Position numbers and translations under genes: made by a program. A stretch of 64,000 nt of DNA from assembly GCA_027717595.1 (NCBI GenBank), contig JALLOF010000002.1, forward strand, positions 29,324 through 93,323. Direction: 5' to 3'. Source of the DNA: Nitrospinae bacterium AH_259_B05_G02_I21. GTDB taxonomy: Bacteria; JADFOP01. The notes under the pieces were generated by a model, which saw only the letters and a program-made list of their open reading frames with translations, had not been told where the DNA came from and searched no databases. Shown here in pieces: positions 39,875 through 57,457 of the stretch (position 1 is its first letter; every line of letters begins with the position of its first letter).

Positions 39875-40194
39875 GCTCCTATAGGCCTTGGATACTCAAA
39901 ATTGTGTCCTCCACGGTCCTTCAACCAATCTCCGCGTAACCAAGAACACCAAAGTCCCCTTTTTCTACTCTTTCCCGCCTCCTTCTTCCTCTTTGCGGCC
40001 CTCTCATGCGCCCTGTGCGACAGATAGAGCCTGTAAGAGGGCGAGGAGTTCCTTCTCAACTCCCTCGATATGGTGCTCTTGGCACGTCCCAACGCCTCGG
40101 CAATCTCTCCCAGGCCGTCTCCTGATGCCCTCATCTCCGTTATCCTGTCCCTCTCCTCAAGACTCAGATGCCTGTATCTTCTCTCCATGAACAC
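39871..40194 (-). mobile_element. IS30-family transposase N-terminal (HTH) remnant, truncated
   Basis: RHLSLEERDRITEMRASGDGLGEIAEALGRAKSTISRELRRN matches the conserved N-terminal HTH of IS30 transposases. The ORF ends after 107 aa and no DDE catalytic domain follows. Confidence 0.6.
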
Positions 40195-40460
40195 TCAGAG
40201 TACCAGCCTCCCGGCCGCTTCCCCAAGTGTTGCACTTCCTCATTGAATCCACGATATCAAATACTAGAGGGAAAAGAAACCTTGTTGTAGACAACTCCTT
40301 CTTAAATAAGGCTTCAGGCCGAGGCCTATGGTAACGCATCAATAACCACTAACCATGCATAAGCAACCATCGTGATGACGGACGGTTGCCTAACGACAAA
40401 GGCAACTATAGCGTCTTTGGTTGGTCATTGGACCGCTCAAGGAACAACCCTGCTTTCCGA

Positions 40461-41738: not shown

Positions 41739-41890
41739 CGCAGTGCCATTTTTTTCGCCCTCCTGCCCTTCCGTTACGGCTTTCAGTATGTCCTCGTGAA
41801 TGCGGCTTATCTCTGGCCAGCTACCAGGGAGAAGCGGGCCCTGTTCAAAATACTCGAAGAGTTGCTAAACGAACCCGAGCCACTTCACCG

Positions 41891-41918
41891 TTGACTCACA
41901 AAGTGAGACCGCTACAAT
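41891..41918 (+). promoter_or_regulatory. sigma70-like promoter candidate TTGACT-N16-TACAAT with embedded palindrome CTCAC-aaa-GTGAG
   Basis: TTGACT 41891..41896, TACAAT 41913..41918; inverted repeat 41895..41907 inside the spacer; SD GAAGGAGGA 41936..41944; ATG 41953. Confidence 0.45.
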
Positions 41919-41952
41919 AGGCCGGGTTCCAACCTGAAGGAGGAAGCTATCC

Positions 41953-43091: not shown

Positions 43092-45560
43092 GTGAGGAGG
43101 ACCGCCTCGTCAATGGCGTACGCCACCAGATATCGCGCCCTCTTTTTCTTCCTGGCGCTGCTCGTCTTGATAGCGCTGCCGTCCCGCCCCGTGGGCGTGG
43201 CCGACGGGCTGCCGGCCGACCACCCCCTCGACCTGTGGATCGTGCTGGTGCTTGTCGGGGGGTTTTTCGTCCTTCCCTGGCGGATCGAGCGGCACCGGGC
43301 CACGCGGCTGGCTCTGGCCCTGCTCGCCGTGGCATTAGGCAAGCTCGCTCTGGCCACCACCAGCCTCCCCCACGGCCTCGTGGCCCGCTACTACGCCAAC
43401 GCCGAGCTCAAGGGACCACCTGAGGCCTCCATAAAGTACCGCCTGGACGGAGCCACACGAATAGACCGCTCCCTCGATTTCGCATCCGTGGGTTTCGCCT
43501 GGGGTGCCACGCCCTTCCCCCTCTGGTTCTTCAACGACTCCCGCCGCTTCAACTTCTACAAGCCAGAGGAGCCCGACCGACGGCACCTGCCCTTCAGCGT
43601 GCGGTGGGACGGCTTCATCAGGGCCCCCACGACGGAGCCCTTCACCTGGAGGCTCCTCGCCGAGCAGGAGGCGAGCTTAAGCCTCCTCGGCCAGCCCATC
43701 GTCTCAACGACCGAGGGCGCACCAGAGGCCGCCGTCGCCCTCACGCCCGGCTGGCATCCCATAAGCGTAACCTACGCATACAGAGGCCAGGGCCCCCGGA
43801 GCCTGAGGCTTGAATGGGAAGGAAACGGCGCCTTTCGTCCCGTCCCTCCTTCAGCCCTGCTTCCCTTCCGTCCCTCGCCCGCCCAAGACCGATGGGACGA
43901 GCTTATCGTGATGCCCGGATGGATTCTCTTTTTCCTCCAGTTTCTAGTGGTAGGCTGGATTTTGTTAGAGGGTTTGTGGGGAGAGCCGAGCGAGAAGTTC
44001 CTTGCCGAGCGGACGGCCGTCTACCTGATGGTTGTAGTGATGGTCGCCGTCGGGACCATCTCGCTCTCTAAGCGGGGCCGGGCGCCGGAGTGGAACTTCT
44101 TAAACGGAGGAGACGACCCCCTCACCTACGAGACGGCAGCCAGACAGATTCTGCTAGAGAAAGACCTTCTAAACCGAATGATACCGAATAAACCCTTTTA
44201 CTTCATGGTGGGTTACCGCTACTTCCTGGCTGGAGCCCATGCCGTACTCGGCGAAAGCAAGGCCATGATCGTCCTGACACACTACATTCTGCTGGCAGTG
44301 GCCTGCGCCCTGCTCTACGGCTTGATTCGTTGCCTGGCTCCTCCCGGACCAGCCTTCTTTGCTTCCGCCCTTCTCTTTGCCGGCCAGGCCCACGGAACAG
44401 TCTACCGCTGGGCTACCGAGCTCTTCCCGACCATACTGGGCCTCGTCCTCATCGGGGCAGTCCTGCTCGGCCTCTCTCGCTGGGAAAAGAAACCCACTCT
44501 CTGGGGCGCAGCGGGAATCGGCGCCCTGGCAGGCCTCGCCACCATTGTGAGACCCAACATCTTGGCTTTCCTTCCCTTCGCCATCCTGTGGATGGTACTG
44601 GCACCACCCCTCCCTAGGGCTAAGCGGTGGCAAGGGGCGGCGGTTGCCCTTCTGGCAATGACCTTAACCATTGCACCGGTGACCTGGCGCAACTGGCATG
44701 TCTCAGGCCGCTTTGTCCTCCTCGTAGAGAGCGGTCCCACCATGCTTCTGCAGGGCAATAGCCCCCCACCCTCTGTGGACCTCTCGAGGGCTGTGACTTC
44801 GAGGAGCCTTAAGATTACATTGCGGCGAAGCCCCATTGGGCGGCCTGAGAAACACGAGAAGGCGCTGAGGGATCTATTCTATGACCCTACGGAGGAGAAG
44901 TTCCACCAGACAGTCATTAGAGAAGATACGCGTGAGATACGGGGGATGGTCAACAAGGTAATCCACATGGTTGATGTGGAGGTGTTAGACCCAGATCCTT
45001 CCTACGAGCAGTGGAACCTAAAACACCAAACCCGAGTTGTCCTGGAGTACCTCCGCCAGCAGCCTTGGGCCTTCCTTAAAGGGCTCGGTTGCAAGCTCCT
45101 CACAACCCTCGGAATCAGAAGCCCTTTCGTTCCCTCCCTCCTCCTGCTACACATAGGCTATATCGTTGGGGCCTTTCTTCTCTGGCGGGCAGATGTTGCT
45201 AGACGGCTGTCTATCCTACTACATAGCTTCGTTCTGTCCCAATGGTCGGTCCTGGTCATTTTAAAGCCCGGACCTCACTTGCCCAAAACCCAGTTGCCCA
45301 CCTTTATTGTGGCCTTTTCCTTTGCCGCCCTTCTTATCGTCTCGTGGATGTACGCCGCCGTCGAAGGCCACCCTCCACCAGGGTTCCTGCCACGAGGCCA
45401 GAGGTGGGGCCCCATTACACGCTTCCTCGGCGGAGCGGCAGCCCTGGGGTTGCTGGCAGCGATTACCTACCCACCACGCCTGCCTTTTCTTATCCCCTTG
45501 CTATTCGGGGTCATCTGGATGCTTCGCCGGAATCAACGCCCCCAGCTTCTTTCTCCATGA
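43092..45560 (+). CDS. PA14-like domain / GT-C fold membrane glycosyltransferase fusion protein (paralog 1 of 3)
   Basis: N-terminal TM helices; then the PA14-like pattern GLVARYYAN...FSVRWDGFIRAPTTEPFTWRL...SLSLLGQPIV...HPISVTYAY...LRLEW; then ~13 TM with the loop motif NGGDDPLTYETAARQ and a large second periplasmic loop. The ATG at 43113 (MAYATRYR), preceded by GAGGAGG, is the likelier start. Confidence 0.6.
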   Translation: MRRTASSMAYATRYRALFFFLALLVLIALPSRPVGVADGLPADHPLDLWIVLVLVGGFFVLPWRIERHRATRLALALLAVALGKLALATTSLPHGLVARYYANAELKGPPEASIKYRLDGATRIDRSLDFASVGFAWGATPFPLWFFNDSRRFNFYKPEEPDRRHLPFSVRWDGFIRAPTTEPFTWRLLAEQEASLSLLGQPIVSTTEGAPEAAVALTPGWHPISVTYAYRGQGPRSLRLEWEGNGAFRPVPPSALLPFRPSPAQDRWDELIVMPGWILFFLQFLVVGWILLEGLWGEPSEKFLAERTAVYLMVVVMVAVGTISLSKRGRAPEWNFLNGGDDPLTYETAARQILLEKDLLNRMIPNKPFYFMVGYRYFLAGAHAVLGESKAMIVLTHYILLAVACALLYGLIRCLAPPGPAFFASALLFAGQAHGTVYRWATELFPTILGLVLIGAVLLGLSRWEKKPTLWGAAGIGALAGLATIVRPNILAFLPFAILWMVLAPPLPRAKRWQGAAVALLAMTLTIAPVTWRNWHVSGRFVLLVESGPTMLLQGNSPPPSVDLSRAVTSRSLKITLRRSPIGRPEKHEKALRDLFYDPTEEKFHQTVIREDTREIRGMVNKVIHMVDVEVLDPDPSYEQWNLKHQTRVVLEYLRQQPWAFLKGLGCKLLTTLGIRSPFVPSLLLLHIGYIVGAFLLWRADVARRLSILLHSFVLSQWSVLVILKPGPHLPKTQLPTFIVAFSFAALLIVSWMYAAVEGHPPPGFLPRGQRWGPITRFLGGAAALGLLAAITYPPRLPFLIPLLFGVIWMLRRNQRPQLLSP

Positions 45561-45700
45561 CGGTTTCTAATGCCTGTCCCCGAGGGGACCAAGGTGGCCG
45601 AAGAGGGGTACTAGTATGATGACCGTTTTCTTGCTGGTGCCCTCGCGCGACGACCCCTCGAGGTATAGGGGCAACGGTGCAAGAGGAGAGATCCTCAAGG

Positions 45701-45992
45701 CGCCTCAGGGCCTGGCGAGACCTCAGCCCTCGCAAGAGCCTTGAGATTAATTCGTCGACCCGCCATGATCGATTCGGCCAAGAGACACCCGAGGCCCACA
45801 AAAACGATGGTCGTGAAGGTAGTGGCGTGGAGTGCAAAGGCTGCCGAGAGGGCCTGGGCACGGGGCAATCCATAAAGGAGAAACCCGCCCATGGCAGCGG
45901 CGTGGAAGGTCCCGACGAATCCGGGTGCCGAGGGCAGGGCGACCCCAAGGACTAGCAAGATCTGAAGGACGATGGCCGCCGAGAGCGGGAGG
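45701..45992. repeat. ~290-bp imperfect direct repeat: displaced copy of the 3' end of the flippase-like gene 51093..52145 (partner repeat 51099..51390)
   Basis: DNA identity of roughly 90% by eye over ~290 bp. The fragment translates to ...APGFVGTFHAAAMGG.LLYGLPRAQALSAAFALHAT.FTTIVFVGLGCLLAES..GRR..LKALARAEVSPGPEA, matching the C-terminus of the intact gene. Confidence 0.6.
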
Positions 45993-46172
45993 TGGCCTGA
46001 GATGCAACCATGGGTCGCTCCGAAAAATCAACTAAGAATGGCATTGACCCAGGCTTTAAGAAAGTAACGTTTAAGACAAGAAAGGCTTGGGGCCTTAGTC
46101 GCAAGGCAGGTTTCTCAGAACCGAAGGGTTATCTCATCCAAAATGCCCCTTATGAGCTAAGTCGCAGATCTA

Positions 46173-46487
46173 TTATGATTTCACTTTTGGAAATCTACTA
46201 AGTAACGATTTTGCAAAGCTCAGGCTCCCTGAGGCACCTTCCGTTGCTTCCAGCTTTATCAATCTTCGCTCTACTTGCTCGTGACAAGCCCAGCATAGCG
46301 TGATTAGGTTATCGATGTGGTCGGACCCGCCTTGGGATCGCTTAACTAGGTGATGGACGGTCAAGTTCCTCGGGCTTCGGCAGTAGGGATTCCGACACCG
46401 CCAGCGGTCACGTTGAAAGACTTTGGTCCGCAACCGTGCGAAGGCCTCCTTCTTTAGCCGCACTCGTCTCTTCTTCCACAGGCTCAT
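46173..46487 (-). CDS. HNH endonuclease
   Basis: CRNPYCRSPRNLTVHHLVKRSQGGSDHIDNLITLCWACH (HNH motif with flanking Cys pairs), 104 aa. Confidence 0.75.
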   Translation of the reverse strand: MSLWKKRRVRLKKEAFARLRTKVFQRDRWRCRNPYCRSPRNLTVHHLVKRSQGGSDHIDNLITLCWACHEQVERRLIKLEATEGASGSLSFAKSLLSRFPKVKS

Positions 46488-47016
46488 AGGTTGCTAAGAA
46501 CTCCGCCGCGATCATCTCGGCCTGATAGCCTCGACTCTCCGAGCCCGTCATCAGGCCAGCTAACTCAAGGGCCCTCTCAAACACCTCCCGTTGGGCCTGA
46601 TAGAAATAGACGGTGAAGGGCTTGGCCGCCTCTTCGTCCTTATTGCCTCGAATTAGCGTCTGAAGCTCCTGGGTAGTGAGCTGCTCGGCCCTGGCTAGCC
46701 ATACCGTCAAGTCCTCAGGTGTGGCTACCCTTACCACTTCCTTCATCTTGGTCCATCCGATTCGGCGCAGTTTCTTGGGGGGAATATTGAGTTCATTAAC
46801 CTTCTCCCAGATGGCTATCAGGTAAAAGGCCTTGCGGACACCGAACTCCAGGGTCTCTTGAAGGTAATCCTCAAAATGATCGTAACCGAGTTTTAGGTAA
46901 TGCTGGTGGTGGAAGATTTCTCTAAGCAGGCCCCCTAGCTCGTAGTAACACTCATCCAGCCGGGCCTTGAGCCGTACAATCCTATGGTGGATCTTCAAAT
47001 GCTCTGTTCGGGCCAC
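46408..47016 (-). CDS. hypothetical phage-associated protein
   Basis: 202 aa ORF co-oriented with the HNH and nuclease genes; no assignable motif. Confidence 0.4.
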   Translation of the reverse strand: MARTEHLKIHHRIVRLKARLDECYYELGGLLREIFHHQHYLKLGYDHFEDYLQETLEFGVRKAFYLIAIWEKVNELNIPPKKLRRIGWTKMKEVVRVATPEDLTVWLARAEQLTTQELQTLIRGNKDEEAAKPFTVYFYQAQREVFERALELAGLMTGSESRGYQAEMIAAEFLATYEPVEEETSAAKEGGLRTVADQSLST

Positions 47017-47055
47017 TGCAATTAATTGCAGCCGAGGCGCTGGTGAGTGAAGGAA

Positions 47056-47958
47056 CTATTCAAGATCAGGCTCCTGTCCGTTTTGCAACCTCTCCAGGGT
47101 CCGCTTGAGCTTTCCGTATATCGTCTGGGCCCTGGCTTTGCGAGTGATTTGAGCCTTCCGTCGGATGCCCGGAACGGCGGTACCGTCTTTCTTGGTGTAG
47201 CCACTGTGGGCCTCCAGGATCTCCCCGATGGCCTCGCCGGTGAGAAGCTGGATGGCCGCGAGGAGTTCATCAATCATTTTCCGGTACTCCCGAAGCCCGT
47301 AGCCCTTGGGCTCCCTGTCTTCCTTCTCAGGCTGGCCGTCTTTGGCTTGCCTATCCCCCTCCTCCTGACTCCTGTAACGGTCGATCCACTGTTTTAGGAG
47401 CGCCTGGGGCAAGAGCTGACGAATGGCATTTCGCTGGGCCTTACTGACAGCCTTGACATCAGCAAAGGAATCAATCTGGAGCTGCCCCGAGGGCAGACGC
47501 CGCATAAGCGCCTGGCGAGACCGCCCGACCCGAACACTTCCGGTCTTGATGTCCTTGGCCTCGACCGTCACCACGACATGGGTCTCCGTCTCCTGCTCCT
47601 CTAAAATCCGGCACTGAATGCCCCCGTACGCTCGGCTTGCCTCCTGGATGCCGATCCAGCTTAGCCCCACGATAGGACGACCACCGGAGTTCATCTCGTA
47701 GACGAACTCGTCAAGGTACATCCCTTCTAGTGTAGCCACAATCTGGGCCTCGTCCCGCTGGTCCATGAGCTGGTAGACATCTTGGGGTTCTTCTTCAGCG
47801 CTCTCTTTAGTCTTTGGCGGCTCTTCTTCTTTGACAGCGGTGATTTCTGGTACAGAAATGCCTTCCATGGGACTTTCGGTGTTTTTCATCGTTTCTCCCT
47901 CCCTTATAATCCACCATCCATGACTAAGATCTAACGACTCCTCCAAAGTCCTTCTCAC
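47056..47958 (-). CDS. hypothetical phage-associated protein (possible single-strand annealing/recombination protein; speculative)
   Basis: 300 aa with acidic N- and C-terminal regions (start probably MKNTESP at ~47889). It sits immediately downstream of the Cas4-like exonuclease, as in phage exo/SSAP pairs. No motif-level support. Confidence 0.35.
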   Translation of the reverse strand: MRRTLEESLDLSHGWWIIREGETMKNTESPMEGISVPEITAVKEEEPPKTKESAEEEPQDVYQLMDQRDEAQIVATLEGMYLDEFVYEMNSGGRPIVGLSWIGIQEASRAYGGIQCRILEEQETETHVVVTVEAKDIKTGSVRVGRSRQALMRRLPSGQLQIDSFADVKAVSKAQRNAIRQLLPQALLKQWIDRYRSQEEGDRQAKDGQPEKEDREPKGYGLREYRKMIDELLAAIQLLTGEAIGEILEAHSGYTKKDGTAVPGIRRKAQITRKARAQTIYGKLKRTLERLQNGQEPDLE

Positions 47959-48748
47959 ACTCCTCCCAGTAGCCGCAATGGCGGCGGGTGCAAAGATAGT
48001 TCTGGCGGTTGGGGGTAAAGATCAGGGCCTCAATCTGTCTCGCCACCAAGCCAATGAGGTTCTTATAGTAGGCCAGGTGCGAGGATGTGACTCGGAATGG
48101 GATCTGGACAAGCTTGGTGTTCTTGGTACGGACAAGATAATCCACGACACATCCCTCTTCGGCTCGTTCCTGGGTTGCCCGGTAGGCTAGGGCATAAGCC
48201 ACCATCTGGTCTTGATGTGCTGGGGCCAAAGCAGGGGCATTCTCCACCTTGGCCGGGCTCCGCTTGACCACCTTTGTGTCCCGAATGATGCTACCTCGCT
48301 CGACCACGTCGGGTACGACAACAAAACGATAGGCGAAGTTGGGCATATCTAGCTCCACTCTCTTCTGAACGGCTGTGGGCTGAACCGTAGGAGCCACATC
48401 ACCTTGGTAGAGGGATAGGACCCGGGCCCCGTCGTCTTTCACTTGACTAGGTTTCTCCTCGGGCCCCCAAAGGGTTTCACTCTTTCGGGCCTCGAAGTCG
48501 GTGGAGAAGGCATCGAGAACTTCGTCCAGGGCCAGATCTTGATGACTCTCGATCTTTTGCCGGTAGTTGTGGGTAATGCCGGAATCGACAGCGCTGCCCA
48601 ATGTGGCCGCACCCGAGGGGGGCCTCTTGAGCCCACGGACATATCGGTAGTACCACTGGGCCGGACAGCGCAGGAACATGTTGACCTGCGTTGGGCTTAG
48701 ATGGGGCTTGGATTCAGTGTTTCGGTTCGATAGTTTATTGTTTTTCAT
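47924..48748 (-). CDS. PD-(D/E)xK nuclease with C-terminal Cys cluster (Cas4-like / phage exonuclease family)
   Basis: D...E.K-type core (VVVPDVVERGSIIRDTKV); N-terminal Cys (RCPAQWYY) and C-terminal cluster YLCTRRHCGYWEEC, typical of Cas4/RecB-family Fe-S nucleases. Confidence 0.6.
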   Translation of the reverse strand: MKNNKLSNRNTESKPHLSPTQVNMFLRCPAQWYYRYVRGLKRPPSGAATLGSAVDSGITHNYRQKIESHQDLALDEVLDAFSTDFEARKSETLWGPEEKPSQVKDDGARVLSLYQGDVAPTVQPTAVQKRVELDMPNFAYRFVVVPDVVERGSIIRDTKVVKRSPAKVENAPALAPAHQDQMVAYALAYRATQERAEEGCVVDYLVRTKNTKLVQIPFRVTSSHLAYYKNLIGLVARQIEALIFTPNRQNYLCTRRHCGYWEECEKDFGGVVRS

Positions 48749-48831
48749 GATTTAAAACCTCTATTTCCTCTATCAGCGGGCACGAAATCTCGGGCCCCAA
48801 GGGAGTTTCTTGTAGGCGAATCCTCCCAATT

Positions 48832-49302
48832 ATGGTATTTTGCGAAGCTGAATGGATTATCGTTAGAATAGCCTATTCTGTTTATATTGTCAAGTCCAAT
48901 ATGGAGCTTCCGATGATGAAAAATCTACCACAAAATTTGGGCCAAAGGATCCGTCAATTTCGCGCAGAAAGAGGGCTCTCGCAGTCGAAGATGGCTCGAC
49001 GAATAGACGTCGCAGTCCAGCAGTATAATCGATATGAGCTAGGAAAAACAAAGATTCCTATCGATATCCTCGTGAGAGTAGCTGATATACTAGAGATAAG
49101 CACGGACGTCTTGTTGGGTCGCCAAGAGGCACGGAAAGATGGGGGGCTTTTGGAGGAGAACGTCTTCTATGATTTAGTTGAAAAAATCAAATCTTATCGT
49201 CTCGTAGACTACAAGAAGGAAGAGCGAGAAATTTTGAGAAGTGCAGCCAAGATGCTGGCGGACCGTCTAGAGGAGAAAAAGAAAAAGCGGAAGAAAAACT
49301 GA
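48832..49302 (+). CDS. XRE-family helix-turn-helix transcriptional regulator
   Basis: LGQRIRQFRAERGLSQSKMARRIDVAVQQYNRYELGKTKIPIDILVRVADILEIS is a canonical HTH_XRE; lysine-rich C-terminus. Confidence 0.7.
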   Translation: MVFCEAEWIIVRIAYSVYIVKSNMELPMMKNLPQNLGQRIRQFRAERGLSQSKMARRIDVAVQQYNRYELGKTKIPIDILVRVADILEISTDVLLGRQEARKDGGLLEENVFYDLVEKIKSYRLVDYKKEEREILRSAAKMLADRLEEKKKKRKKN

Positions 49303-49606
49303 TGATGTTGAGGGGATACCCAAGTTGATCATCGAGCGAGTGGAACAGCGGAAAACCCGTCCTCGGAGGAGGAGATAGAAGAGCACTTACACAAGAACCA
49401 TAGAATTTGATCAGGATCGGCGGAGGAATGGTTGCCGGCCGAGCTCTTCTAGAGCAAGGAGTCCCGAGAGAGGGCGAAAGTGAATTGTTGTAAAAGTACC
49501 GAAGCCTCGCGCCTCAAGTAGTGTTATGGAGAGAAATGTCTGAAGGACCTATCGCGCTACCTGGTACATTGATGTCTTACGGCACTAGCTATTAGCTTCA
49601 GGGTAG

Positions 49607-50278
49607 CTAGGCCCTGTTCAAAGATATATTCAACCCAATTTCCTCTATCAAATCCAACGCCTCGTCAGAGAGGTCAGATAGGTCAATTTTTGGCTTCTGT
49701 TGGCTATGAATAGGGCCGCCGTCTAGATCTTCAAGTTTGTCCAACACTTGGAAAAGTTTAGGAACGGCATTCGCGGGGATTTCGCCACTCATCAGCCTCT
49801 CAAGGATCTCAAGGGCGATTTTGCCCTTCTGATTGGTGGAAACCTCAAGGGCAGAGTCTGCAAGGGTAAAGGGCAAAGGCGCTTGGGATCCATACGCGTT
49901 AGTGGCCTTGAGGATTTCCACACAAGCCCGGAGGCGAATCTGTTCGCTGGAGGACCGGGCGAGATCTTTCAAGCCCTGAATAGCCTCGGGGACCAGACTT
50001 CGCAGCTGTCCCACGGCGGCTTGGAACTGCGATCGTTTGGCCCGTTCCAACTCCTCCTGAAAGGCGGGGATTTTGAGCCACTCATGCAGGGTGGAGCGGC
50101 TGACGCCGGCGTTCTTGCTCGCGGCTTCGATGGTGGGGCTCTCAAGAAGAGAAACAATTGCCCGCTGTTGGCGCGGAGTCAGTTTTCCATTGCTGCTCAT
50201 CGGTCTAACTCCTTTCAAAATGGTTGGGTTTATATGGTCTTTCCCTATTCCCCTGCTCCCACAGAACAACAGAGTCAC
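49607..50278 (-). CDS. HTH DNA-binding protein (phage regulatory / terminase-small-subunit-like, uncertain)
   Basis: LTPRQQRAIVSLLESPTIEAASKNAGVSRSTLHEWLK resembles an HTH module; the start is probably MSSNGKL (~50200). Confidence 0.45.
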   Translation of the reverse strand: MTLLFCGSRGIGKDHINPTILKGVRPMSSNGKLTPRQQRAIVSLLESPTIEAASKNAGVSRSTLHEWLKIPAFQEELERAKRSQFQAAVGQLRSLVPEAIQGLKDLARSSSEQIRLRACVEILKATNAYGSQAPLPFTLADSALEVSTNQKGKIALEILERLMSGEIPANAVPKLFQVLDKLEDLDGGPIHSQQKPKIDLSDLSDEALDLIEEIGLNISLNRA

Positions 50279-50508
50279 TCCCTCTTTGCAAGGGTAAAAT
50301 TGAAAAGGGAAGCGTAGGCATATAAGAGATGTTGGATTAGCTTACAAGTCCAGTAAAATAAGCCCCTTGCAGTCCCTACTAGGTGGCTTCTAGTGCCCTC
50401 ATGAGGGAATTGGACAAGGAGAACCTTCCAGCGGGAAATCAGACTCCCATAACATATTGATTATATGGTCATCATGGCGCTATTGTGCCATTGTATAGCT
50501 CTAAAAAG

Positions 50509-50533
50509 TGTCCGAAAATGTCCGATTTTGTCC
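50509..50533. repeat. three TGTCC motifs at exact 10-bp spacing (TGTCCGAAAA TGTCCGATTT TGTCC) in the non-coding part of the element
   Basis: Read directly: TGTCC at 50509, 50519 and 50529. Helical-turn periodicity suggests a protein-binding array (iteron/operator-like). Confidence 0.3.
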
Positions 50534-51092
50534 AGGACTAGCAATGGACGATACAGGTGGGAATAGCTGTACAAAATCAAGGGGATACCCAATATCTTCT
50601 TGATTGGAGAACAAATTCACTAGATTAATCCCCAGCATTCAAATGAGGAGAGGAACCATGATACTATCTAGCGGAGAAAGGTATCTGACGGACGGCTTTG
50701 TTGTGCAGAAGGAGTTAACGGCTATGCGGCTCTATCCGCCCATCGTCAACATGCTGTTCGGAGGCAGGCTTCAATACATGGCTGTACTTAGCGTAGAAGG
50801 GGCTTAATGCGCTCGGGTCCCCGCAAGGCTTCGATGCACGCCGACGATCCTTAGTGCCTCTTGCCTCTAGTCGTTTTAGCAAGGCTCTGTGAAAAACGGT
50901 TTAACAGGTATGCCCTCCTCCACAAACGTGTAAAACGCATAGCCCCGGGGGCCCAGCCATCGCCTCCAGGCCGATTGCTCCCCGCCCCACTCGATCATGA
51001 CAAGCCCAACACAATGTTAGGAAACTCTCCCTCTGATCCTCTCCCTCTGAGAGCGCCCCCCTAGGAGAGCTTCACTAAAGGAAAGGAAACGG

Positions 51093-52145
51093 TCAATTCG
51101 CCTCAGGGCCCGGCGAAACCTCAGCCCTCGCAAGAGCCTTGAGCCTAAGGCGTCGGCCAATCACCACCGACTCGGCCAAGAGACACCCGAGGCCCACAAA
51201 AACGATGGTCGTGAAGATAGTGGCGTGGAGTGCAAAGGCTGCGGAGAGGGCCTGGGCACGGGGTAATCCATAAAGGAGAAGCCCGCCCATGGCAGCGGCG
51301 TGGAAGGTCCCGACGAATCCAGGTGCCGAGGGCAGGACGACCCCAAGGACTATCAGGACCTGTAGGGTGATGACAGCCGAGGGCGGGAGGGTCATGTCAA
51401 AAGCCTTGAACAAGCAGAGGTTGGTAGCCAAAAAAATCCCCCAGATGGCCAGGGTCAAGGCGATGAAGGGTGGCAGGTCTCTACCAGTAGGTACACCCCG
51501 CAAGCCACCTACGAAAGCCTCCCCCCACCCAACCATTTTATCCACCCATGGGGTGGGAAGAAAGGTGAAGGCCCGGCGTAGGAAAGCCAGGGCACGTTCT
51601 GGGCTCCGAGCCAGCCCCCACAGGACCAGCCCACATACCACGGTGACGAGACCAAAGAGCCCCGCACCGATTTGTAGGGAAGCCTTCAAGGCGGGACCTG
51701 TCAGGGACGGCACAAACCATCCAAGAGCCAAGATCATCAGCGGCAGAAAAGAAAGGGCGTCAACAAGCCGCTCCATCACTATAGTGGCGAAGACGCTGCT
51801 AACCGGAACGTGGCCTCCCTCCCCTGCCACGACGGCCCGCACCACCTCGCCCGCCCGGACTGGAAGTAGCATATTGCCAAGGAACCCAATCCCCGTTGCT
51901 CGGATGCAAAGGCCAAGGCTCAAAGGATGAACCGGCTTTAAAAGATAGGTCCACCGCCAGGCGCGAAGGCCAATGACGGCTGCACTTAGGAGCGCTATTA
52001 GCCCAACCCACTCCAGTTTTACTTGAGCGAAGGCTAGGCGGACCTCGTGCCATCCAACCCCTCGAAGGACCCAGCCCAGCAGAAGGAGGCTCACTGCAAA
52101 TCCAGCAATGATGTAACTTCGCTTCACTCGCTGCCTCTCGACCAA
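51093..52145 (-). CDS. flippase-like / lysylphosphatidylglycerol-synthase-TM-region family membrane protein (UPF0104-like)
   Basis: 350 aa, ~8 TM; N-terminus RSYIIAGFAVSLLLLGWVLRGVGWHEV...LLSAAVIGLRAWRWTYLL is typical of this family, which is often partnered with GT2 enzymes. Its 3' ~290 bp is one of the direct repeats. Confidence 0.6.
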   Translation of the reverse strand: MVERQRVKRSYIIAGFAVSLLLLGWVLRGVGWHEVRLAFAQVKLEWVGLIALLSAAVIGLRAWRWTYLLKPVHPLSLGLCIRATGIGFLGNMLLPVRAGEVVRAVVAGEGGHVPVSSVFATIVMERLVDALSFLPLMILALGWFVPSLTGPALKASLQIGAGLFGLVTVVCGLVLWGLARSPERALAFLRRAFTFLPTPWVDKMVGWGEAFVGGLRGVPTGRDLPPFIALTLAIWGIFLATNLCLFKAFDMTLPPSAVITLQVLIVLGVVLPSAPGFVGTFHAAAMGGLLLYGLPRAQALSAAFALHATIFTTIVFVGLGCLLAESVVIGRRLRLKALARAEVSPGPEAN

Positions 52146-52428
52146 TCAAAGACCTCATATTGTACTGAACGAACTCCGTCAAGACAACGGTCCGACCACC
52201 GGGGGACGATCACCGCTGCACCTCTCCAAGCGACGGCCAGCGGGCGGGGCACTTCACAATTCCATATACTCTGCCTCAAGTGCCCCCGCATGGTTGCATC
52301 CGCCGCTTCAAGTGATACCATGGAAGCTAACTGTCCCCTCCCCGGGGACCCTGTTCGCACAAGCCCCCCCTTTTGGAAGCACGGGGCGGTGGCCTGAACA
52401 CGCCTCCTACACGTGCCGAGGGAGGACA

Positions 52429-53463
52429 ATGAGCCAGGAGACCCTGCTAGTCGTCGGCGGCGCCGGGTACATCGGCTCGCACTGTACGACTCTTTTGTTG
52501 GAGCACGGCTATAACGCCTTGGTCCTCGACGACCTCTCCACGGGCCACCGGGAGGCGGTCCCTGAGGAGGCTTCCCTCATAATCGGGGACCTCGGCGACG
52601 CCGCTCTACTGAACAACATATTTGAGCGGCACGATATTTCGGCTGTTTTCCACTTCGCCGCGCTCGCCATCGTCTCCGAATCGCCCCGCCAGCCATTGAC
52701 CTACTACGAAAACAACGTCGCCAAGACCGCCGTCTTGCTCCAGGCCATGGCGAGCCACGAGGTTCCTTGCTTCATCTTCTCCTCAACGGCGGCGGTCTAC
52801 GGAGAGCCGAGCGCCGACGTGCTGACCGAGGATCATCCGACTAGTCCGGTCAATCCGTACGGCCGCTCCAAGTTGATGGTTGAGGCGATGCTGTCCGACG
52901 CCGCCGAAGCCCTGGCGCTTCGCTACGCTTCGCTGCGCTATTTCAATGCCGCCGGCACCGACCCTTCAGGGCGGTGGGGTGAAGACCACCGCCCGGAGAC
53001 TCATCTCATCCCCCGAATCTTGTTGGGTACGCTGGCCCACCAAGGTGTGGCCATCCACCCGGCGGCCGATGTCCCGCCCTGGATCGAGGTCTACGGCACG
53101 GACTACGACACACCCGACGGGACATGCGTCCGCGACTTCATTCACGTCACCGACCTCGCCGAGGCCCACCTCCTGGCCCTCCGCCACCTCCGGCAGGAGG
53201 GGGAGAGCCTGGTCTGCAACCTGGGCTCTGAGACGGGCTTTTCCGTTCGCCAGGTCATCGAGGCGGCCGCCCGTGTGACGGGGACATCCCTGCCCGTCCA
53301 GGAAAAGCCACGACGTCCCAACGAGCCCTCCCGGCTGGTCGCCAGCGCGGCGTTCTCTCGTCGCCTCCTGGGGTGGAATCCCCGCTTCAGCGACCTGGAG
53401 ACCATCATTCAAACGTCATGGGAGTGGCACAAAGCACACCCCCGAGGGTACGCCCAGTCATAG
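52429..53463 (+). CDS. galE: UDP-glucose 4-epimerase
   Basis: LLVVGGAGYIGSH; SSTAAVYGEP; NPYGRSKLMVE (YxxxK); FNAAGTDPSGRWGED; VRDFIHVTDLAEAHL; C-terminal WEWHKAHPRGY. Clearly GalE-like. ATG at 52429 with a GGGAGGA SD. Confidence 0.85.
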   Translation: MSQETLLVVGGAGYIGSHCTTLLLEHGYNALVLDDLSTGHREAVPEEASLIIGDLGDAALLNNIFERHDISAVFHFAALAIVSESPRQPLTYYENNVAKTAVLLQAMASHEVPCFIFSSTAAVYGEPSADVLTEDHPTSPVNPYGRSKLMVEAMLSDAAEALALRYASLRYFNAAGTDPSGRWGEDHRPETHLIPRILLGTLAHQGVAIHPAADVPPWIEVYGTDYDTPDGTCVRDFIHVTDLAEAHLLALRHLRQEGESLVCNLGSETGFSVRQVIEAAARVTGTSLPVQEKPRRPNEPSRLVASAAFSRRLLGWNPRFSDLETIIQTSWEWHKAHPRGYAQS

Positions 53464-53586
53464 AGCCGCATAGAGAAGAACCGCAAGAGGCTCGGTACGC
53501 CCAAAGACGGTTGAGCATGTGAAGGGAGAGCGGGCTTGTGGGGTTAGGCGCCTTCCGCCCACGCCTGAACGGCTCGCACAACCCGG

Positions 53587-54654
53587 TCAACTTCCTCTTC
53601 CGTGAGCTCCGGGAACATGGGAAGGCTCAACACCTCGCGGGCTGCCCGATCGCTTTCCGGGAAGGCCCTTTCCATGTAGCCCCCCCCCTGCAAAAGCCTC
53701 CTGGGCCGGGAGCGACACGGGATAGTGTATTGCCGCTCCGATGCCCTGGTCGGCCAGATGGCGCTTCAGGTCGTCGCGTCGGGCCGCCCCGATGGTGTAC
53801 TGATGGTATACGTGATGGGACCCCGGGGCCTCCGTCGGGCACACCACGCCTGAGACCTTCTCGAGGCCAGCCGTGTAGGCTGCGGCGTGGCGACGGCGAG
53901 CATCGTTCCACCCCTCCAGGTGAGGGAGCTTGACCCGAAGGACGGCGGCCTGGAGAGTGTCCAGGCGGCTATTGTATCCCACCACCCTGTGCAGATAGCG
54001 CTCGGACGCCCCGTGAACGCGAAGCTGGCGGACCAGCTCGGCCAGGGCCGCATCGTCCGTGACCACCATCCCCCCGTCGCCGTAGGCCCCGAGGTTCTTC
54101 GTCGGAAAGAAGCTGAAACAACCGACATCCCCCAAAGATCCGACGACGCGCCCCTGGGAGCGGGCACCGAAGGCCTGTGCGGCATCCTCGATGACGGCCA
54201 AGCCGTGTCGAGCCGCCAGCGCGCTAATCGCCTCCATGGGGGCAGGATGGCCGAACAGGTGGACGGGAATAATGGCTTTGGTCCTCGAGGTGACGGCCGC
54301 TGCCGCCGCACCGGGGTCTAGGGCGTAAGCCTGCGGGTCAACATCCACAAAGACGGGCATGGCGCCACAGTAGATGACAACCTCCGCCGTTGCGATGAAA
54401 GTGAAGGCGGGCACGAGGACTTCATCGCCCGGACCGACGCCGAGAGCCAGCAGGGCCAAGTGGAGGGCGTCCGTGCCTGAGGCCACCCCGACGGCGTGGC
54501 TGGCTCCGCAAAAGGCGGCGACCTCCTCCTCCAGGGCCTCTACCTCGCGGCCCAAGACGAACTGGCCGCTCTCGATGACCCGTCGGATGGCTTCATCCAT
54601 CGCCTCGCGCAAGAAGGCGTATTGGCGCGTCAGGTCGAAAACCGGGATGGACAT
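53587..54654 (-). CDS. DegT/DnrJ/EryC1/StrS-family PLP-dependent sugar aminotransferase; 3' end frameshifted at a G9 homopolymer
   Basis: MSIPVFDL...SGQFVLGREVEALE...GTDALHLAL...FSFFPTKNLGAYGDGG...HYPVSLPAQEAF. After the G9 tract (53680..53688) the frame gives a non-homologous tail. The alternative frame encodes the conserved ...GYMERAFPESDRAAREVLSLPMFPELTEEEVDRVVRAVQAWAEGA* ending at 53544. Confidence 0.8.
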   Translation of the reverse strand: MSIPVFDLTRQYAFLREAMDEAIRRVIESGQFVLGREVEALEEEVAAFCGASHAVGVASGTDALHLALLALGVGPGDEVLVPAFTFIATAEVVIYCGAMPVFVDVDPQAYALDPGAAAAAVTSRTKAIIPVHLFGHPAPMEAISALAARHGLAVIEDAAQAFGARSQGRVVGSLGDVGCFSFFPTKNLGAYGDGGMVVTDDAALAELVRQLRVHGASERYLHRVVGYNSRLDTLQAAVLRVKLPHLEGWNDARRRHAAAYTAGLEKVSGVVCPTEAPGSHHVYHQYTIGAARRDDLKRHLADQGIGAAIHYPVSLPAQEAFAGGGLHGKGLPGKRSGSPRGVEPSHVPGAHGRGS

Positions 54655-54894
54655 CGCTTCCTCGGTGAGGGATGGCAAGGGGCCGTAAGGCCAGCGGCCA
54701 TTAAACCACCCCGGCCGGACACGGCGCAAGAGGGATGTGGAGGGGCACCAACTTCTTTCCAGCCATTTCCATCTGACTCGGACCATGGATGACGAACCGA
54801 TCGCTCCTCCTCGCGCCTTTCATCGTTGACTCCCACCGCGAAGCCGCTACAATTGCCTCGGCTGCACCTGGCTTAGAGGGATAACGGAGCTCCC

Positions 54895-57363
54895 GTGCCC
54901 ACGACGTCCGCCACCAGATACCGGGTCGTCTTTTTTCTCCTGGCGCTGCTCGTCCTGATAGCGCTGCCGTCCCGCCCCGTGGGCGTGGCCGATGGCTTGC
55001 CTGCCGACCACCCCCTCGACCTGTGGCTTGTGCTGGTGCTGGTCGGGGGATTTTTCGTCCTTCCCTGGCGGATCGAGCGGCACCGGGCCCCGCGGCTGGC
55101 CCTGGCCTTGCTCGCCGTGGCTATCGTCAAGCTCGCTCTGGCCACCACCAGCCTCCCCCACGGCCTGGCGGCCCGCTACTTCGCCAACGCCGCCTTCGAG
55201 GGGCCCCCCGAGGCCTCCCTCGAGTACCGCCTGCCCGGGGCCACCCGCCTCGACTCCACCATCGCCTTCGCCCCCGTGGGCTTCGCCTGGGGCGAAAAAC
55301 CTTTCCCCCTTTGGTTCTTCAACGACTCCCGCCGATTTAATTTCTACAAGCCCGGGGAGCCCAACCGCCGACGTCTGCCCTTCAGCGTGCGCTGGGACGG
55401 CTTCATAAGAGCCCCTTCTGCCGAGCCCCTTACCTGGAGGCTTGAGACCGACCAAGAGGCAACTCTAAGCCTCCTTGGCCAACCCATCGTCTCAACGACC
55501 GAGGGCCCGCCCGAGGCCTCAGTTACCCTCAGCCCAGGCTGGCACCCCATTAGCGTAACCTACGCATACAAAGGCCAGGGTGCGCGGAACCTGGAGCTCG
55601 AGTGGGAACGAAACGGCTCTTTTCGGCCCGTCCCTCCATCAGCCCTGATGCCCTTCCGGCCCTCGCCTCTTCAAGAGCGGTGGGACCAGCTGGTGGTTAC
55701 GCCCGGCTGGGTGCTCTTCGTCCTGCAATTTCTCGTCGTGGGATGGATCTTGTTGGAGGGTTTGTGGGGAGAGTCGAAGGAGCGGTTCCTAACTGAGCAG
55801 GCGGCCGTCTACTTGATGGTGGTAGTGCTGGTGGGTTTCGGGACCGTCTCGCTCGCCAAGCGGGGCCGATCATCGGATTGGAACTTCCTAAACGGAGGAG
55901 ACGACCCTCTTACCTACGAAACAGCCGCCAGGCAAATACTCATAGAACGAGATCCGCTAAACAGAATGATACCGAACAAGCCCTTTTACTATATGGTGGG
56001 TTACCGTTACTTCCTGGCTGGAACCCATGCTTTACTCGGCGAGAGCAAGGCGATGGTCGTCCTGACACACTACATTCTGCTGGCAGTGGCCTGCGCCCTG
56101 CTTTACTACCTGATACGAATCCTGGCTCCTCCCGGGCCGGCCTTATTTGCAGCCGCCCTTCTCTTTTCTGGTCAGGCTCATGGAACAGTCTACCGGTGGG
56201 CCACCGAGCTCTTCCCAACCATGCTAGGCCTCGCCCTAACCGGGGCAATGCTCCTAGCGCTGGCCCACTGGGAGCGGCAACCCACTCTCTGGGGTGCAGC
56301 AGGAAGCGGTGTCCTAGCGGGCCTAGCAACCATTGTACGGCCCAACTTCCTCGTGTTCCTCCCCTTCGCCATCCTGTGGATGGGGATAGCATTACCCCAT
56401 CCAAGGGCCAAACGGTGGCAAGGGGCGGCGGTTGCCCTTCTGGCAATGACCTTCACCATTGCACCGGTGACCTGGCGAAACTGGCACGTTTCGGAACGCT
56501 TCGTGCTCCTCGTTAATAGCGGCCCCACCATGCTACTGCAGGGAAACAATCCTCCGCCAACGGTGGACCTCTCGAGGACTGTGACATCGAGGAGTCTCAA
56601 GATTTCGCTACGCCAAAGCCCATCCGGGGAGCTTAAGAAACACACAAAGGTGCTGAGGGATCTATTCAATGACCCCTTGGCGGAGAAGACTCAAACGGGG
56701 GCCATTCGAAGAGATACGCTCGAGATTCAGGGGATGGTCAACAAGGTTATCCACTTAGTTGACGTGGAGGTAATAGACCCATATCCTTTATATCAGCAGT
56801 GGAACTTGGCCCCCCAAACCCGAGAGGTCCTGGAGTACCTCCGCCAGCAACCAGGAAATTTCATCAAGGGACTTGGCCGCAAGGCTCTCCAAACACTGGG
56901 ATTCGCCTATCCGTTCGCCCCAGCCCTTCTGCTGCTCCACCTCGCCTATCTCCTAGGAGCCGTTCTACTTTGGCGGGCCGGAGTGGCTCGACGCCTGGCC
57001 ATTCTGCTCCATGCCTTCGTTCTGTCGCAATGGTTGGTTCTCGTCATCGTGAAGCCCGGACCCCACTTGCCCAAAACCCAACTGCCAACGTTCTTCGTCG
57101 CCTTCGGGTTCGCAGCCCTCCTGATCGTCTCATGGACGGCCGCCGCCATCGAAGGCCGCCCCCCACCGAGCATAGTGCCAAGACGAAAGAAGTGGTCCCC
57201 ACGTGCGCGCATCCTCGGCGGGGCGGCAGCGATGGGGCTCCTTGGCGCGCTCACCTACCTTCCGCGCCTGCCTCTGCTCATCGCATTGCTCGCCGGAGCG
57301 GTCTGGAGCCTGCGGCACACACCACACCACACGGCTCTCGGCGCTTCAGCCTCCCCACCGTAA
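54895..57363 (+). CDS. PA14-like domain / GT-C fold membrane glycosyltransferase fusion protein (paralog 2 of 3)
   Basis: Same architecture as 43092..45560 (GLAARYFAN...FSVRWDGFIRAPSAEPLTWRL...; NGGDDPLTYETAARQ; multi-TM). GTG start at 54895 with a GGAG SD 5 nt upstream. Confidence 0.6.
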   Translation: MPTTSATRYRVVFFLLALLVLIALPSRPVGVADGLPADHPLDLWLVLVLVGGFFVLPWRIERHRAPRLALALLAVAIVKLALATTSLPHGLAARYFANAAFEGPPEASLEYRLPGATRLDSTIAFAPVGFAWGEKPFPLWFFNDSRRFNFYKPGEPNRRRLPFSVRWDGFIRAPSAEPLTWRLETDQEATLSLLGQPIVSTTEGPPEASVTLSPGWHPISVTYAYKGQGARNLELEWERNGSFRPVPPSALMPFRPSPLQERWDQLVVTPGWVLFVLQFLVVGWILLEGLWGESKERFLTEQAAVYLMVVVLVGFGTVSLAKRGRSSDWNFLNGGDDPLTYETAARQILIERDPLNRMIPNKPFYYMVGYRYFLAGTHALLGESKAMVVLTHYILLAVACALLYYLIRILAPPGPALFAAALLFSGQAHGTVYRWATELFPTMLGLALTGAMLLALAHWERQPTLWGAAGSGVLAGLATIVRPNFLVFLPFAILWMGIALPHPRAKRWQGAAVALLAMTFTIAPVTWRNWHVSERFVLLVNSGPTMLLQGNNPPPTVDLSRTVTSRSLKISLRQSPSGELKKHTKVLRDLFNDPLAEKTQTGAIRRDTLEIQGMVNKVIHLVDVEVIDPYPLYQQWNLAPQTREVLEYLRQQPGNFIKGLGRKALQTLGFAYPFAPALLLLHLAYLLGAVLLWRAGVARRLAILLHAFVLSQWLVLVIVKPGPHLPKTQLPTFFVAFGFAALLIVSWTAAAIEGRPPPSIVPRRKKWSPRARILGGAAAMGLLGALTYLPRLPLLIALLAGAVWSLRHTPHHTALGASASPP

Positions 57364-57457
57364 GGATTCTTCGGACCATCCGTCGCAAAGCAAGAGCGAA
57401 TGGGCCTGCGCCTCAACGATTTCGGACGTCTCGCCTGATATGCTATCCTTGTGGCCC

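Follow-up and report, generated by a model that had tools for sequence, protein, structure and literature searches.

We analyzed a stretch of 64,000 nucleotides from Nitrospinae bacterium AH_259_B05_G02_I21 (a single-cell or metagenome-assembled genome; contig JALLOF010000002.1, positions 29,324 to 93,323 of the forward strand), here called the window, and found a 5.1-kb block of phage-derived genes between a gene for a flippase-like membrane protein and a displaced second copy of that gene's 3' end. To judge from a related contig without the block, the ancestral order was a flippase gene followed by a convergent GT-C gene, and the block entered precisely at the flippase stop codon, the original 3' end being displaced to its far side. 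As deduced from the alignments, this topology is the one expected if a circular element bearing the 3' end of the gene recombined with the chromosomal gene in a single reciprocal (Campbell-type) crossover. Our overall reading, which is tentative and falls a little short of an even chance, is that the block is an integrase-less, satellite-like element that inserted by homology, using a copy of the gene's 3' end that it carried; the enzyme involved is unproven.

The block is an insertion at the stop codon of a flippase-like gene

The block is flanked by direct repeats of 298 nt, which align without gaps and are 89.6 to 90% identical (BLASTN E value of 9e-112). An earlier reading, made from the sequence alone, had described same-orientation repeats of about 290 bp with roughly 90% identity. 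These repeats proved to be real and slightly longer, and they aligned at the nucleotide level. That reading had also placed the start of the similarity at the stop codon, and we found a TGA at the end of both copies (minus strand, 51093-51095 and 45695-45697), where the similarity stops. The right copy belongs to an intact gene (Table 1), whose product matched Pfam PF03706 with an E value of 7e-46 over profile positions 1 to 302 of 302 and was 100% identical to an NCBI "flippase-like domain-containing protein" of the same organism. The left copy carries an open reading frame (ORF) of 87 codons (45695..45958) that mirrors the final 87 residues of the flippase. A second NCBI record (JALLOI010000038.1, L001) has the same arrangement and is 100% identical across window positions 45254-55005; it is perhaps not a data set independent of the window record.

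The sequence-only reading had proposed a search for an empty site in related genomes. Such a site was found in the Logan contig L002, where about 135 nt separate a flippase ortholog (83% identity in amino acids, 85% in nucleotides) from the 3' end of a GT-C gene that converges on it. When L002 was aligned with both copies and their flanks, it matched the right copy upstream of the repeat, both copies within it, and the left copy alone past the stop codon. Over alignment columns 380-560, past the stop codon, L002 was 63% identical to the left flank and 49% identical to the right flank; over the first 70 nt or so past the stop codon, the identities were 60 to 66% with the left copy and 41 to 48% with the right copy. 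A more distant ortholog (L003, 68%) is also without the element. Because L002 shows an empty site, with the flippase gene running directly into the convergent GT-C gene, we regard the 5.1-kb block as an insertion, and for the same reason a simple segmental duplication and an assembly artifact were discarded. The borders of the repeats are those of the insertion as set by L002, and a segmental duplication, the case that would have spoken against the earlier reading, was thus not what we found. The description of the insert as AT richer also held, since the GC content of the 5,100 bp between the repeats was 0.522, compared with 0.595 and 0.638 in the flanks. The remark that the insertion separates GT-C paralog 1 from paralogs 2 and 3 is only loosely true; the flippase gene, galE and DegT also intervene.

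The flippase gene is itself a mosaic when compared with its ortholog in L002 (window 51093-52127 versus L002 586-1620): identity is 99% over the first 100 nt, falls to 67% at 401-500 and is back at 97% at 501-600. This pattern suggests recombination between lineages inside the polysaccharide locus.

The two copies of the 3' end form a mosaic

Mismatches between the two copies in the window were clumped. From 5' to 3', there were 10 in 39 nt, 6 in 181 nt, 12 in 28 nt and 4 in 50 nt, which corresponds to a divergence of about 26% at the 5' edge, about 3% in the center and 43% in the 28-nt patch (center versus the rest, Fisher p = 4e-7). The comparison with the L002 ortholog was much flatter, with 15% divergence in the repeat center. 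The edges of the two copies therefore diverge from each other as much as from the ortholog of another species, and the center is about 4.5 times closer. Blocks of perfect identity between the copies (45, 39 and 26 nt) are all internal, and the most divergent edge is the 5' one. As read from the alignment, the mosaic points to repeated exchange between homologous sequences inside a block of fixed extent, through integration or excision at differing points, ends-in gap repair, or gene conversion. It does not identify the recombining enzyme. With L002 as the outgroup, 20 sites favored the right copy and 11 the left copy, a polarity that is confounded by possible pseudogene drift of the fragment and by the distance of L002; the pN/pS ratio between the copies was 0.68. 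A degenerate 38-mer from the repeat center, used to look for an attP site in viruses, gave 0 matches in IMG/VR.

The element encodes an exonuclease and a candidate annealing protein but no integrase

The genes previously listed between the two copies (HNH, Cas4-like nuclease, XRE, a second HTH regulator and hypothetical genes) were borne out, with Pfam E values of 4e-12, 4e-19 and 1e-13 for the first three. Searches of the element's ORFs against Pfam, PHROG and NCBIfam showed no tyrosine or serine recombinase and no transposase, and no integrase was found in the window flanks of the element. Matches to capsid or tail proteins were not found in the element, and no tRNA, tmRNA or Rfam family was found in the 64-kb window.

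Downstream of the exonuclease gene lies a gene for a 277-aa protein for which sequence searches of Pfam, PDB and sequence profiles gave no match. In about 30 of 43 distant loci, among them viral contigs of 24 to 43 kb, its homolog is located directly downstream of the exonuclease gene. The top PDB fold match of its structural model, found with Foldseek, was human RAD52 (8rjw_E; probability of 0.99, E value of 1e-3), with a low template modeling (TM) score. Its conserved core (…KA[IV]SKAQRNAIRQLLPQ…) is predicted to fold as β-β-α-β-β-β…α. We consider a Rad52-like annealing protein probable, but not proven, from the model and the gene order. In IMG/VR, close relatives of the protein were absent, and just relatives of 35 to 58% identity in contigs of 24 to 43 kb were present; a search of cultured phages for close relatives gave no match.

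The protein of about 200 aa encoded next had no match in Pfam. Homologs with 27 to 31% identity occur in cultured phages of 80 to 110 kb, in operons with RecA-like and RuvC-like genes. The XRE gene is transcribed divergently from the exonuclease operon, and promoter-like sites were found on both strands at 48840-48893. The encoded protein matched phrog_8 ("transcriptional regulator," E value of 1e-22) and phrog_3 and phrog_4 ("transcriptional repressor," about 1e-13); its score of 64 bits against an NCBIfam RstR-family model was under that model's cutoff. The model of the 197-aa HTH protein (predicted local distance difference test [pLDDT] score of 70) had its best fold match in the prophage protein 2ao9 (probability of 1.0, TM score of 0.52 to 0.62), which is regarded as a small-terminase-like ring.

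Several other identities were considered and rejected. An Xer-exploiting element (IMEX, CTX/TLC type) does not fit, since the flanking repeats are the 298-nt gene 3' end and not a dif site of about 28 bp, and the matches to the NCBIfam models RstR and XafT cover the generic HTH domain alone, under cutoff. PADLOC gave generic HNH, Cas4 and HTH matches alone, and a defense system was dropped. Terminal inverted or direct repeats of the kind found at transposon ends were not found beyond the gene duplication.

Related elements lie behind unrelated genes

Relatives of the element were found in environmental metagenomes and metagenome-assembled genomes through homologs of the 277-aa and terminase-like proteins. 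L005 is 90% identical in nucleotides to window positions 50584-46051 and L004 is 93.7% identical to positions 49377-46051. The backbone of L059 is 84% identical to that of the window, and those of L007/L006/L008, L013 and L009 are 72 to 75% identical. The XRE, exonuclease, 277-aa, ~200-aa and HNH genes are all kept in L004, L005, L007 and L059; L009 starts partway into the element, and L013 stops before the HNH gene. Several relatives also retain the terminase-like gene and a landmark of phased GGACA boxes described below. Accessory cargo consists of HicAB in L004 and of PIN/FitA and a DUF2204 nucleotidyltransferase in L006/7.

According to gene tables and Pfam searches, integrase, recombinase and transposase genes are absent from L004, L005, L059, L007/L006/L008, L013, L009 and L057/58. 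The lack of an integrase looks native to the element family because it recurs in five or more relatives at differing locations (L004, L005, L007/L006, L013, L059 and L057). The earlier statement that no integrase or virion genes remain was therefore right in that neither was found; the loss it implied was not upheld, since relatives with the same gene set are also without an integrase. Judged by their gene content and placement, these are a family of horizontally acquired, phage-derived elements of about 5 to 8 kb, which we call satellite-like because integrase and virion genes are absent from all members.

The genes upstream of the elements differ. A flippase-like gene is found in L059, a gene for a 150-aa multiheme cytochrome in L007, an epimerase gene in L013 and a polysaccharide deacetylase gene in L057/58, and L004 and L005 sit amid fragments of epimerase, galE and GT-C genes. 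Near their stop codons, the four kinds of target have no 11-mer or longer word in common. The sequence-only reading had proposed a site-specific element that carried a replacement 3' end. A phage-derived insertion that left the gene intact through a substitute 3' end was supported by our results; "site-specific" was not, because the genes next to the relatives differ and no core sequence is common to the target 3' ends. The element in L004 is 94% identical to that of the window, whereas the adjoining epimerase fragment is just 77% identical to the window gene. Therefore, the unit appears to have moved between diverged hosts.

L007, the other near-complete member besides the window element, is an 8.3-kb contig that starts and ends in repeats. 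It consists of a cytochrome gene copy up to the stop codon, the element, and a second cytochrome copy. Its repeats, which end at the stop codon, are at least 342 nt long, the left copy being truncated by the contig end. The identity between them is 94 to 97% in the first 257 nt but drops to 58% in the last 85 nt. Direct repeats were not found in L004, L005, L006 and L013, whose contigs end inside or near the element.

Two of these loci showed further rearrangements. In L005 (1-1093) and L004 (4562-5068), we observed a galE gene with an internal deletion of about 500 nt, a decayed internal GT-C fragment and an oppositely oriented N-terminal epimerase fragment of 170 aa. It may be that the elements accumulate in surface-polysaccharide loci that are prone to rearrangement, or that they promote such rearrangement. 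L009 (1-1344) is 92% identical to the L007 backbone, with two internal deletions of about 90 nt and a different flank, and is a decaying copy.

The element has a conserved backbone, a phased landmark and variable spacers

Homology of the backbone to L004 and L005 ends at 46051, and the spacers on either side of the backbone are variable (Table 1). Searches of the relatives' spacers with the proteins of the window's element and flanks, a query set that included no integrase, gave nothing but the HNH relic described below, in the window's spacer; small ORFs in that spacer had no Pfam match. At the terminase-side end of the backbone lie three GGACA boxes. This triple motif occurs once in the 64-kb window (0 expected) and is found at the same relative position in L005 (1145), L013 (3331), L057 (9678), L058 (7126) and L059 (542); L007 has a two-box version. 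The boxes are the sole conserved island within otherwise unrelated terminase-side spacers and are probably a protein-binding site (putatively a pac site, an origin or an operator).

The window spacer also holds the remains of the C terminus of a second, divergent HNH gene, about 50 nt past the flippase stop codon. In tblastx and tblastn comparisons, this relic matched the HNH genes of the window, L005 and L009 with E values of 5e-9 to 3e-10 (50 to 56% identity) and those of L007 (4e-8) and L059 (5e-6) with 38 to 41% identity. The relic itself was not found in any related element. Its similarity to these genes shows, at the level of sequence, that another member of the family earlier occupied, or recombined at, the flippase site.

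Table 1. Positions in the window of the flippase gene, its displaced 3' end and the features of the element
Feature	Position	Strand	Remarks
Left direct repeat	45695..45992	minus	Displaced 3' fragment of the flippase gene; beyond it lie the native intergenic region and then the convergent GT-C gene
58-nt spacer	45993..46050	minus	Between backbone end and displaced fragment; absent from relatives
Conserved backbone	46051..50584	minus	Defined by BLASTN against relatives
Terminator-like hairpin	46082-46096		After the HNH gene
HNH endonuclease, 104 aa	46173..46487	minus	Pfam HNH, E value of 4e-12; also in L004, L005, L007, L009 and L059
Protein of 196 to 202 aa, phrog_17202 (function unknown)	46408..47016	minus	PHROG E value of 3e-22
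Candidate Rad52-like single-strand annealing protein, 277 aa	47056..47889	minus	Gene order and fold match
PD-(D/E)XK (Cas4/RecB-like) exonuclease, 274 aa	47924..48748	minus	Pfam PDDEXK_1, E value of 4e-19; PHROG "exonuclease"
XRE/CI-type repressor	48832..49302 (NCBI call of 129 aa, 48913..49302)	plus	Pfam HTH_3, E value of 1e-13
Small-terminase-like HTH protein, 197 aa	49607..50200	minus	PHROG terminase small subunit families, best E value of 4e-10
Three GGACA boxes in 10-nt phase (GGACAAAATCGGACATTTTCGGACA)	50509..50533	minus	Landmark of the terminase-side end of the backbone
508-nt variable spacer, target stop codon to backbone	50585..51092	minus	No homolog in relatives except the HNH relic
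Degenerate C terminus of a second HNH gene (…SFLTLCWACHDRVGRGAIGLEA…; …LTLCWACH…)	50944..51045	minus	Relic
Right direct repeat	51093..51390	minus	Last 298 nt of the intact flippase gene, stop codon included; attL-like in gene orientation
Intact target gene, LPG_synthase_TM "flippase-like" membrane protein	51093..52145	minus	ORF of 350 aa; NCBI call of 344 aa

Proposed insertion by homology and its alternatives

In the mechanism that we propose, the element would circularize, carrying its own copy of the target 3' end, and a single crossover with the chromosomal gene would insert the element while keeping the gene whole. The crossover would be homologous, carried out by the element's exonuclease and annealing protein and/or the host RecA, without a dedicated site-specific integrase. 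The element-borne gene fragment would thus act as a targeting arm, and a cut by the HNH protein could prime the crossover in an "ends-in" reaction. The terminase-like protein, the HNH protein and the phased GGACA boxes may serve packaging by a helper phage, and the XRE repressor would keep the element silent. A wider version of this idea, possible although we think it unlikely, is a so far undescribed type of phage satellite or mini-island that needs no integrase at all and combines an exchangeable 3'-end homing arm of a few hundred bases, its own exonuclease/Rad52-like machinery, a break made by the HNH protein and a regenerated target gene. If this is true, swapping of the arm would retarget the element, which would explain why near-identical backbones lie behind flippase, cytochrome, epimerase and deacetylase genes.

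A number of observations weigh against insertion by homology. A stop of the homology exactly at the stop codon would be expected from selection on a replacement 3' end, the situation in the integrase-driven e14/icd case; by this argument, a purely homology-driven system would gain nothing from such a limit. The same mosaic would result from gene conversion between the repeats after integration, irrespective of the enzyme that inserted the element, and neither the polarity of changes nor the pN/pS ratio locates a crossover, both being equally compatible with an in-situ duplication that diverged later. The empty site stems from a lineage that is merely 85% identical, and we found neither an excised circle nor a free form with attP, nor an empty site that was polymorphic in the same population. 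Only the window element and L007 allow both junctions to be seen. In L059, the flippase stop codon is followed by about 70 nt of host-type intergenic DNA, and no displaced fragment was found within 480 nt of the HNH gene, where an IS3 element lies instead; L004 and L005 sit in scrambled gene fragments, not in clean duplications. Finally, the model of the 277-aa protein is mediocre (mean pLDDT of 59; 70 to 89 in the core) and its Foldseek score is weak.

The main rival is a recombinase acting in trans. The element would be site specific without an integrase of its own and would be mobilized like a CIME or a satellite, with a helper prophage or host recombinase reading a core within the 298-nt attL/attR repeats and the element carrying the helper's attP together with the replacement 3' end. 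We judge this account somewhat improbable, but it has much in its favor. The architecture is the same as that described for e14 and phage 21 in icd/icdC (PMC13626634), the homology stops at the stop codon both in the window and in L007, and any of the 45-, 39- and 26-nt identity blocks could hold a core. The presence of terminase-like and HNH genes hints at an element that relies on a helper phage, and the H47 island offers a precedent of an integrase-less island that is moved by unidentified trans factors (PMC3191183). However, no integrase was found in the 64-kb window or any related locus, and near-identical backbones next to unrelated targets with no common core would each need a different helper integrase. 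Site-specific recombination would not require the 220 to 260 nt of homology upstream of the core, yet this is the best-conserved part of the repeat, and an attP-like copy of the repeat center was not found in IMG/VR. Decay of a full temperate phage that had integrated at the gene's 3' end and later lost its integrase and structural genes, leaving the immunity/recombination region, is clearly less probable. It would account for the phage homologs of all the genes, including the distant exonuclease/annealing pairs in viral contigs of 24 to 43 kb, for the second-HNH relic, a sign of decay at the site, for the deletions in L009, and for the roughly 800 bp of noncoding DNA adjoining the intact gene. 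But the same compact gene set recurs with 72 to 94% nucleotide identity in at least five genomic contexts, on which independent decay would not converge. The reading frames are intact in four contexts (the exceptions being L009, with its deletions, and L013, where the ~200-aa gene aligns in two overlapping pieces), both ends are kept with the GGACA landmark included, and the elements are more alike than the host genes, which indicates that the unit moved recently.

Two further explanations concern the origin of the repeats. The 3' end might have been duplicated in situ at the time of insertion, through staggered breaks, copying at a replication fork or capture of a fragment from the same host, and the copies might have diverged afterwards, with the fragment as a pseudogene. 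The 20 left-specific and 11 right-specific changes (~0.5 expected) fit one neutral and one constrained copy, and the pN/pS between the copies is relaxed at 0.68. We nevertheless find this quite improbable, because the divergence is clumped (26 to 43% at the 5' edge and in the 28-nt patch versus 3% in the center), which uniform decay would not produce, and the identity of the L007 repeats is likewise uneven (58% versus 94 to 97%). Moreover, the element's genes are intact despite a repeat divergence of about 10%, and relatives that are 6 to 10% divergent are already located elsewhere. The last alternative, that the assembly is chimeric or that a segmental duplication produced the repeat independently of the insert, is scarcely credible. 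Paralogs abound in the region (three GT-C genes and several epimerase genes), and contigs tend to break at repeats; against this, the borders of the repeats coincide exactly with those of the insertion as seen from the empty site, an assembler would neither collapse nor misjoin copies that are 10% divergent, and the structure is repeated in a second record and has an analogue in L007.

Other features of the window

The genes that flank the element in the window encode TPR proteins, glycosyltransferases, a ParA-like ATPase and a remnant of an IS30-type HTH protein. The remnant is the N-terminal part of a transposase (HTH_38; 39871-40194, minus strand). A 278-nt stretch at 39970-40247 is 92% identical to L060 (5748-6025), which also has a terminase-like homolog and Transposase_mut fragments.

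The three GT-C/PMT_2-like paralogs (43092-45560, 54895-57363 and 57203-59710) are 73 to 90% identical over sampled 300-nt blocks and less similar elsewhere, with an overlap of about 160 nt between the ORFs of the second and third. Paralog 1 (plus strand, 822 aa), a membrane glycosyltransferase-like protein, contains a match to Pfam Ribosomal_L30 at residues 573 to 627 (…DTREIRGMVNKVIHMVDVEV…), with an E value of 8e-11 and 42 bits against a cutoff of 23. No such match was found in paralogs 2 and 3 at an E value of <0.001, though paralog 2 resembles paralog 1 in that stretch. A 48-nt upstream element with 73% identity (41884-41931 versus 54819-54866) is common to the epimerase gene at 41953 and paralog 2.

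Significance

When a phage, satellite or island integrates, the event is nearly always ascribed to a dedicated integrase, to a transposase or to hijacked XerCD. What appears to be new here is a combination: an integrase-less, phage-derived unit of 5 to 8 kb, with a conserved gene set for exonuclease, Rad52-like, ~200-aa and HNH proteins plus a terminase-like protein, with long mosaic duplications of the 3' end of the gene behind which it happens to lie, and with evidence of spread between diverged hosts. Protein-coding targets with a replacement 3' end and integrase-less islands with long imperfect repeats are already known. If insertion by homology is true, the family would represent a different and naturally reprogrammable route to lysogeny-like integration, with an exonuclease/annealing pair of its own and a piece of a host gene as the address label, and finders of islands and satellites that are based on integrases would miss such elements. 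It would also be relevant to the evolution of surface-polysaccharide loci, where the elements sit and scrambled fragments build up. If an integrase acts in trans, the window would still hold a clean new example of the e14/icd type of replacement 3' end in a poorly studied phylum.

Comparison with known systems

The PD-(D/E)XK exonuclease gene followed by the gene for the Rad52-like annealing candidate, a pairing kept across many phage contigs, recalls the lambda Red/RecET modules. Such modules function when a phage genome is replicated, repaired and recombined; to our knowledge, no chromosomal island has been described that uses them for its integration. A further difference is that the annealing activity of the 277-aa protein is a prediction from its model. 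With phage satellites (PICI, cfPICI, P4-like and PLE), the element shares a compact size, a phage origin, the lack of virion genes and a gene resembling an XRE master repressor. The TerS-like and HNH genes suggest a hijack of helper packaging, and toxin-antitoxin cargo is found in L004 and L006/7. However, phage satellites are usually about 10 to 18 kb, and the described families, as far as we know, all encode an integrase, whereas the window element has 5.1 kb, carries no integrase and no recognizable primase or replicase, and has an exonuclease/annealing-protein pair.

Like the microcin H47 island, the element is small, is without a recombinase of its own and has long imperfect direct repeats at both ends, as seen in the window and L007. 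For H47, recombination takes place in several segments of identity between the repeats, with unidentified trans factors and in recombination-deficient cells (PMC3191183 and PMC5426353). The two differ in that H47 carries a microcin system and is flanked by repeats that do not stem from the 3' end of a gene; the mobility of H47 was shown experimentally, whereas the window element is known from sequence alone. The closest parallel in architecture is provided by e14 and phage 21, which, according to PMC13626634, which cites Hill et al. (1989), insert in the 3' end of Escherichia coli icd, supply a replacement end and leave the icdC fragment. The earlier emphasis on a protein-coding gene rather than a tRNA was thus correct as to the target, although such a target is not new in itself. 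As in e14/icd, the element has a protein-coding target, a slightly different replacement 3' end, a displaced original end and imperfect direct repeats. In contrast to e14 and phage 21, which have their own integrase and excisionase and a defined core, the window element and its relatives are without an integrase, their duplication, of 298 nt in the window and at least 342 nt in L007, is mosaic and of greater length, and sister elements use unrelated genes as targets.

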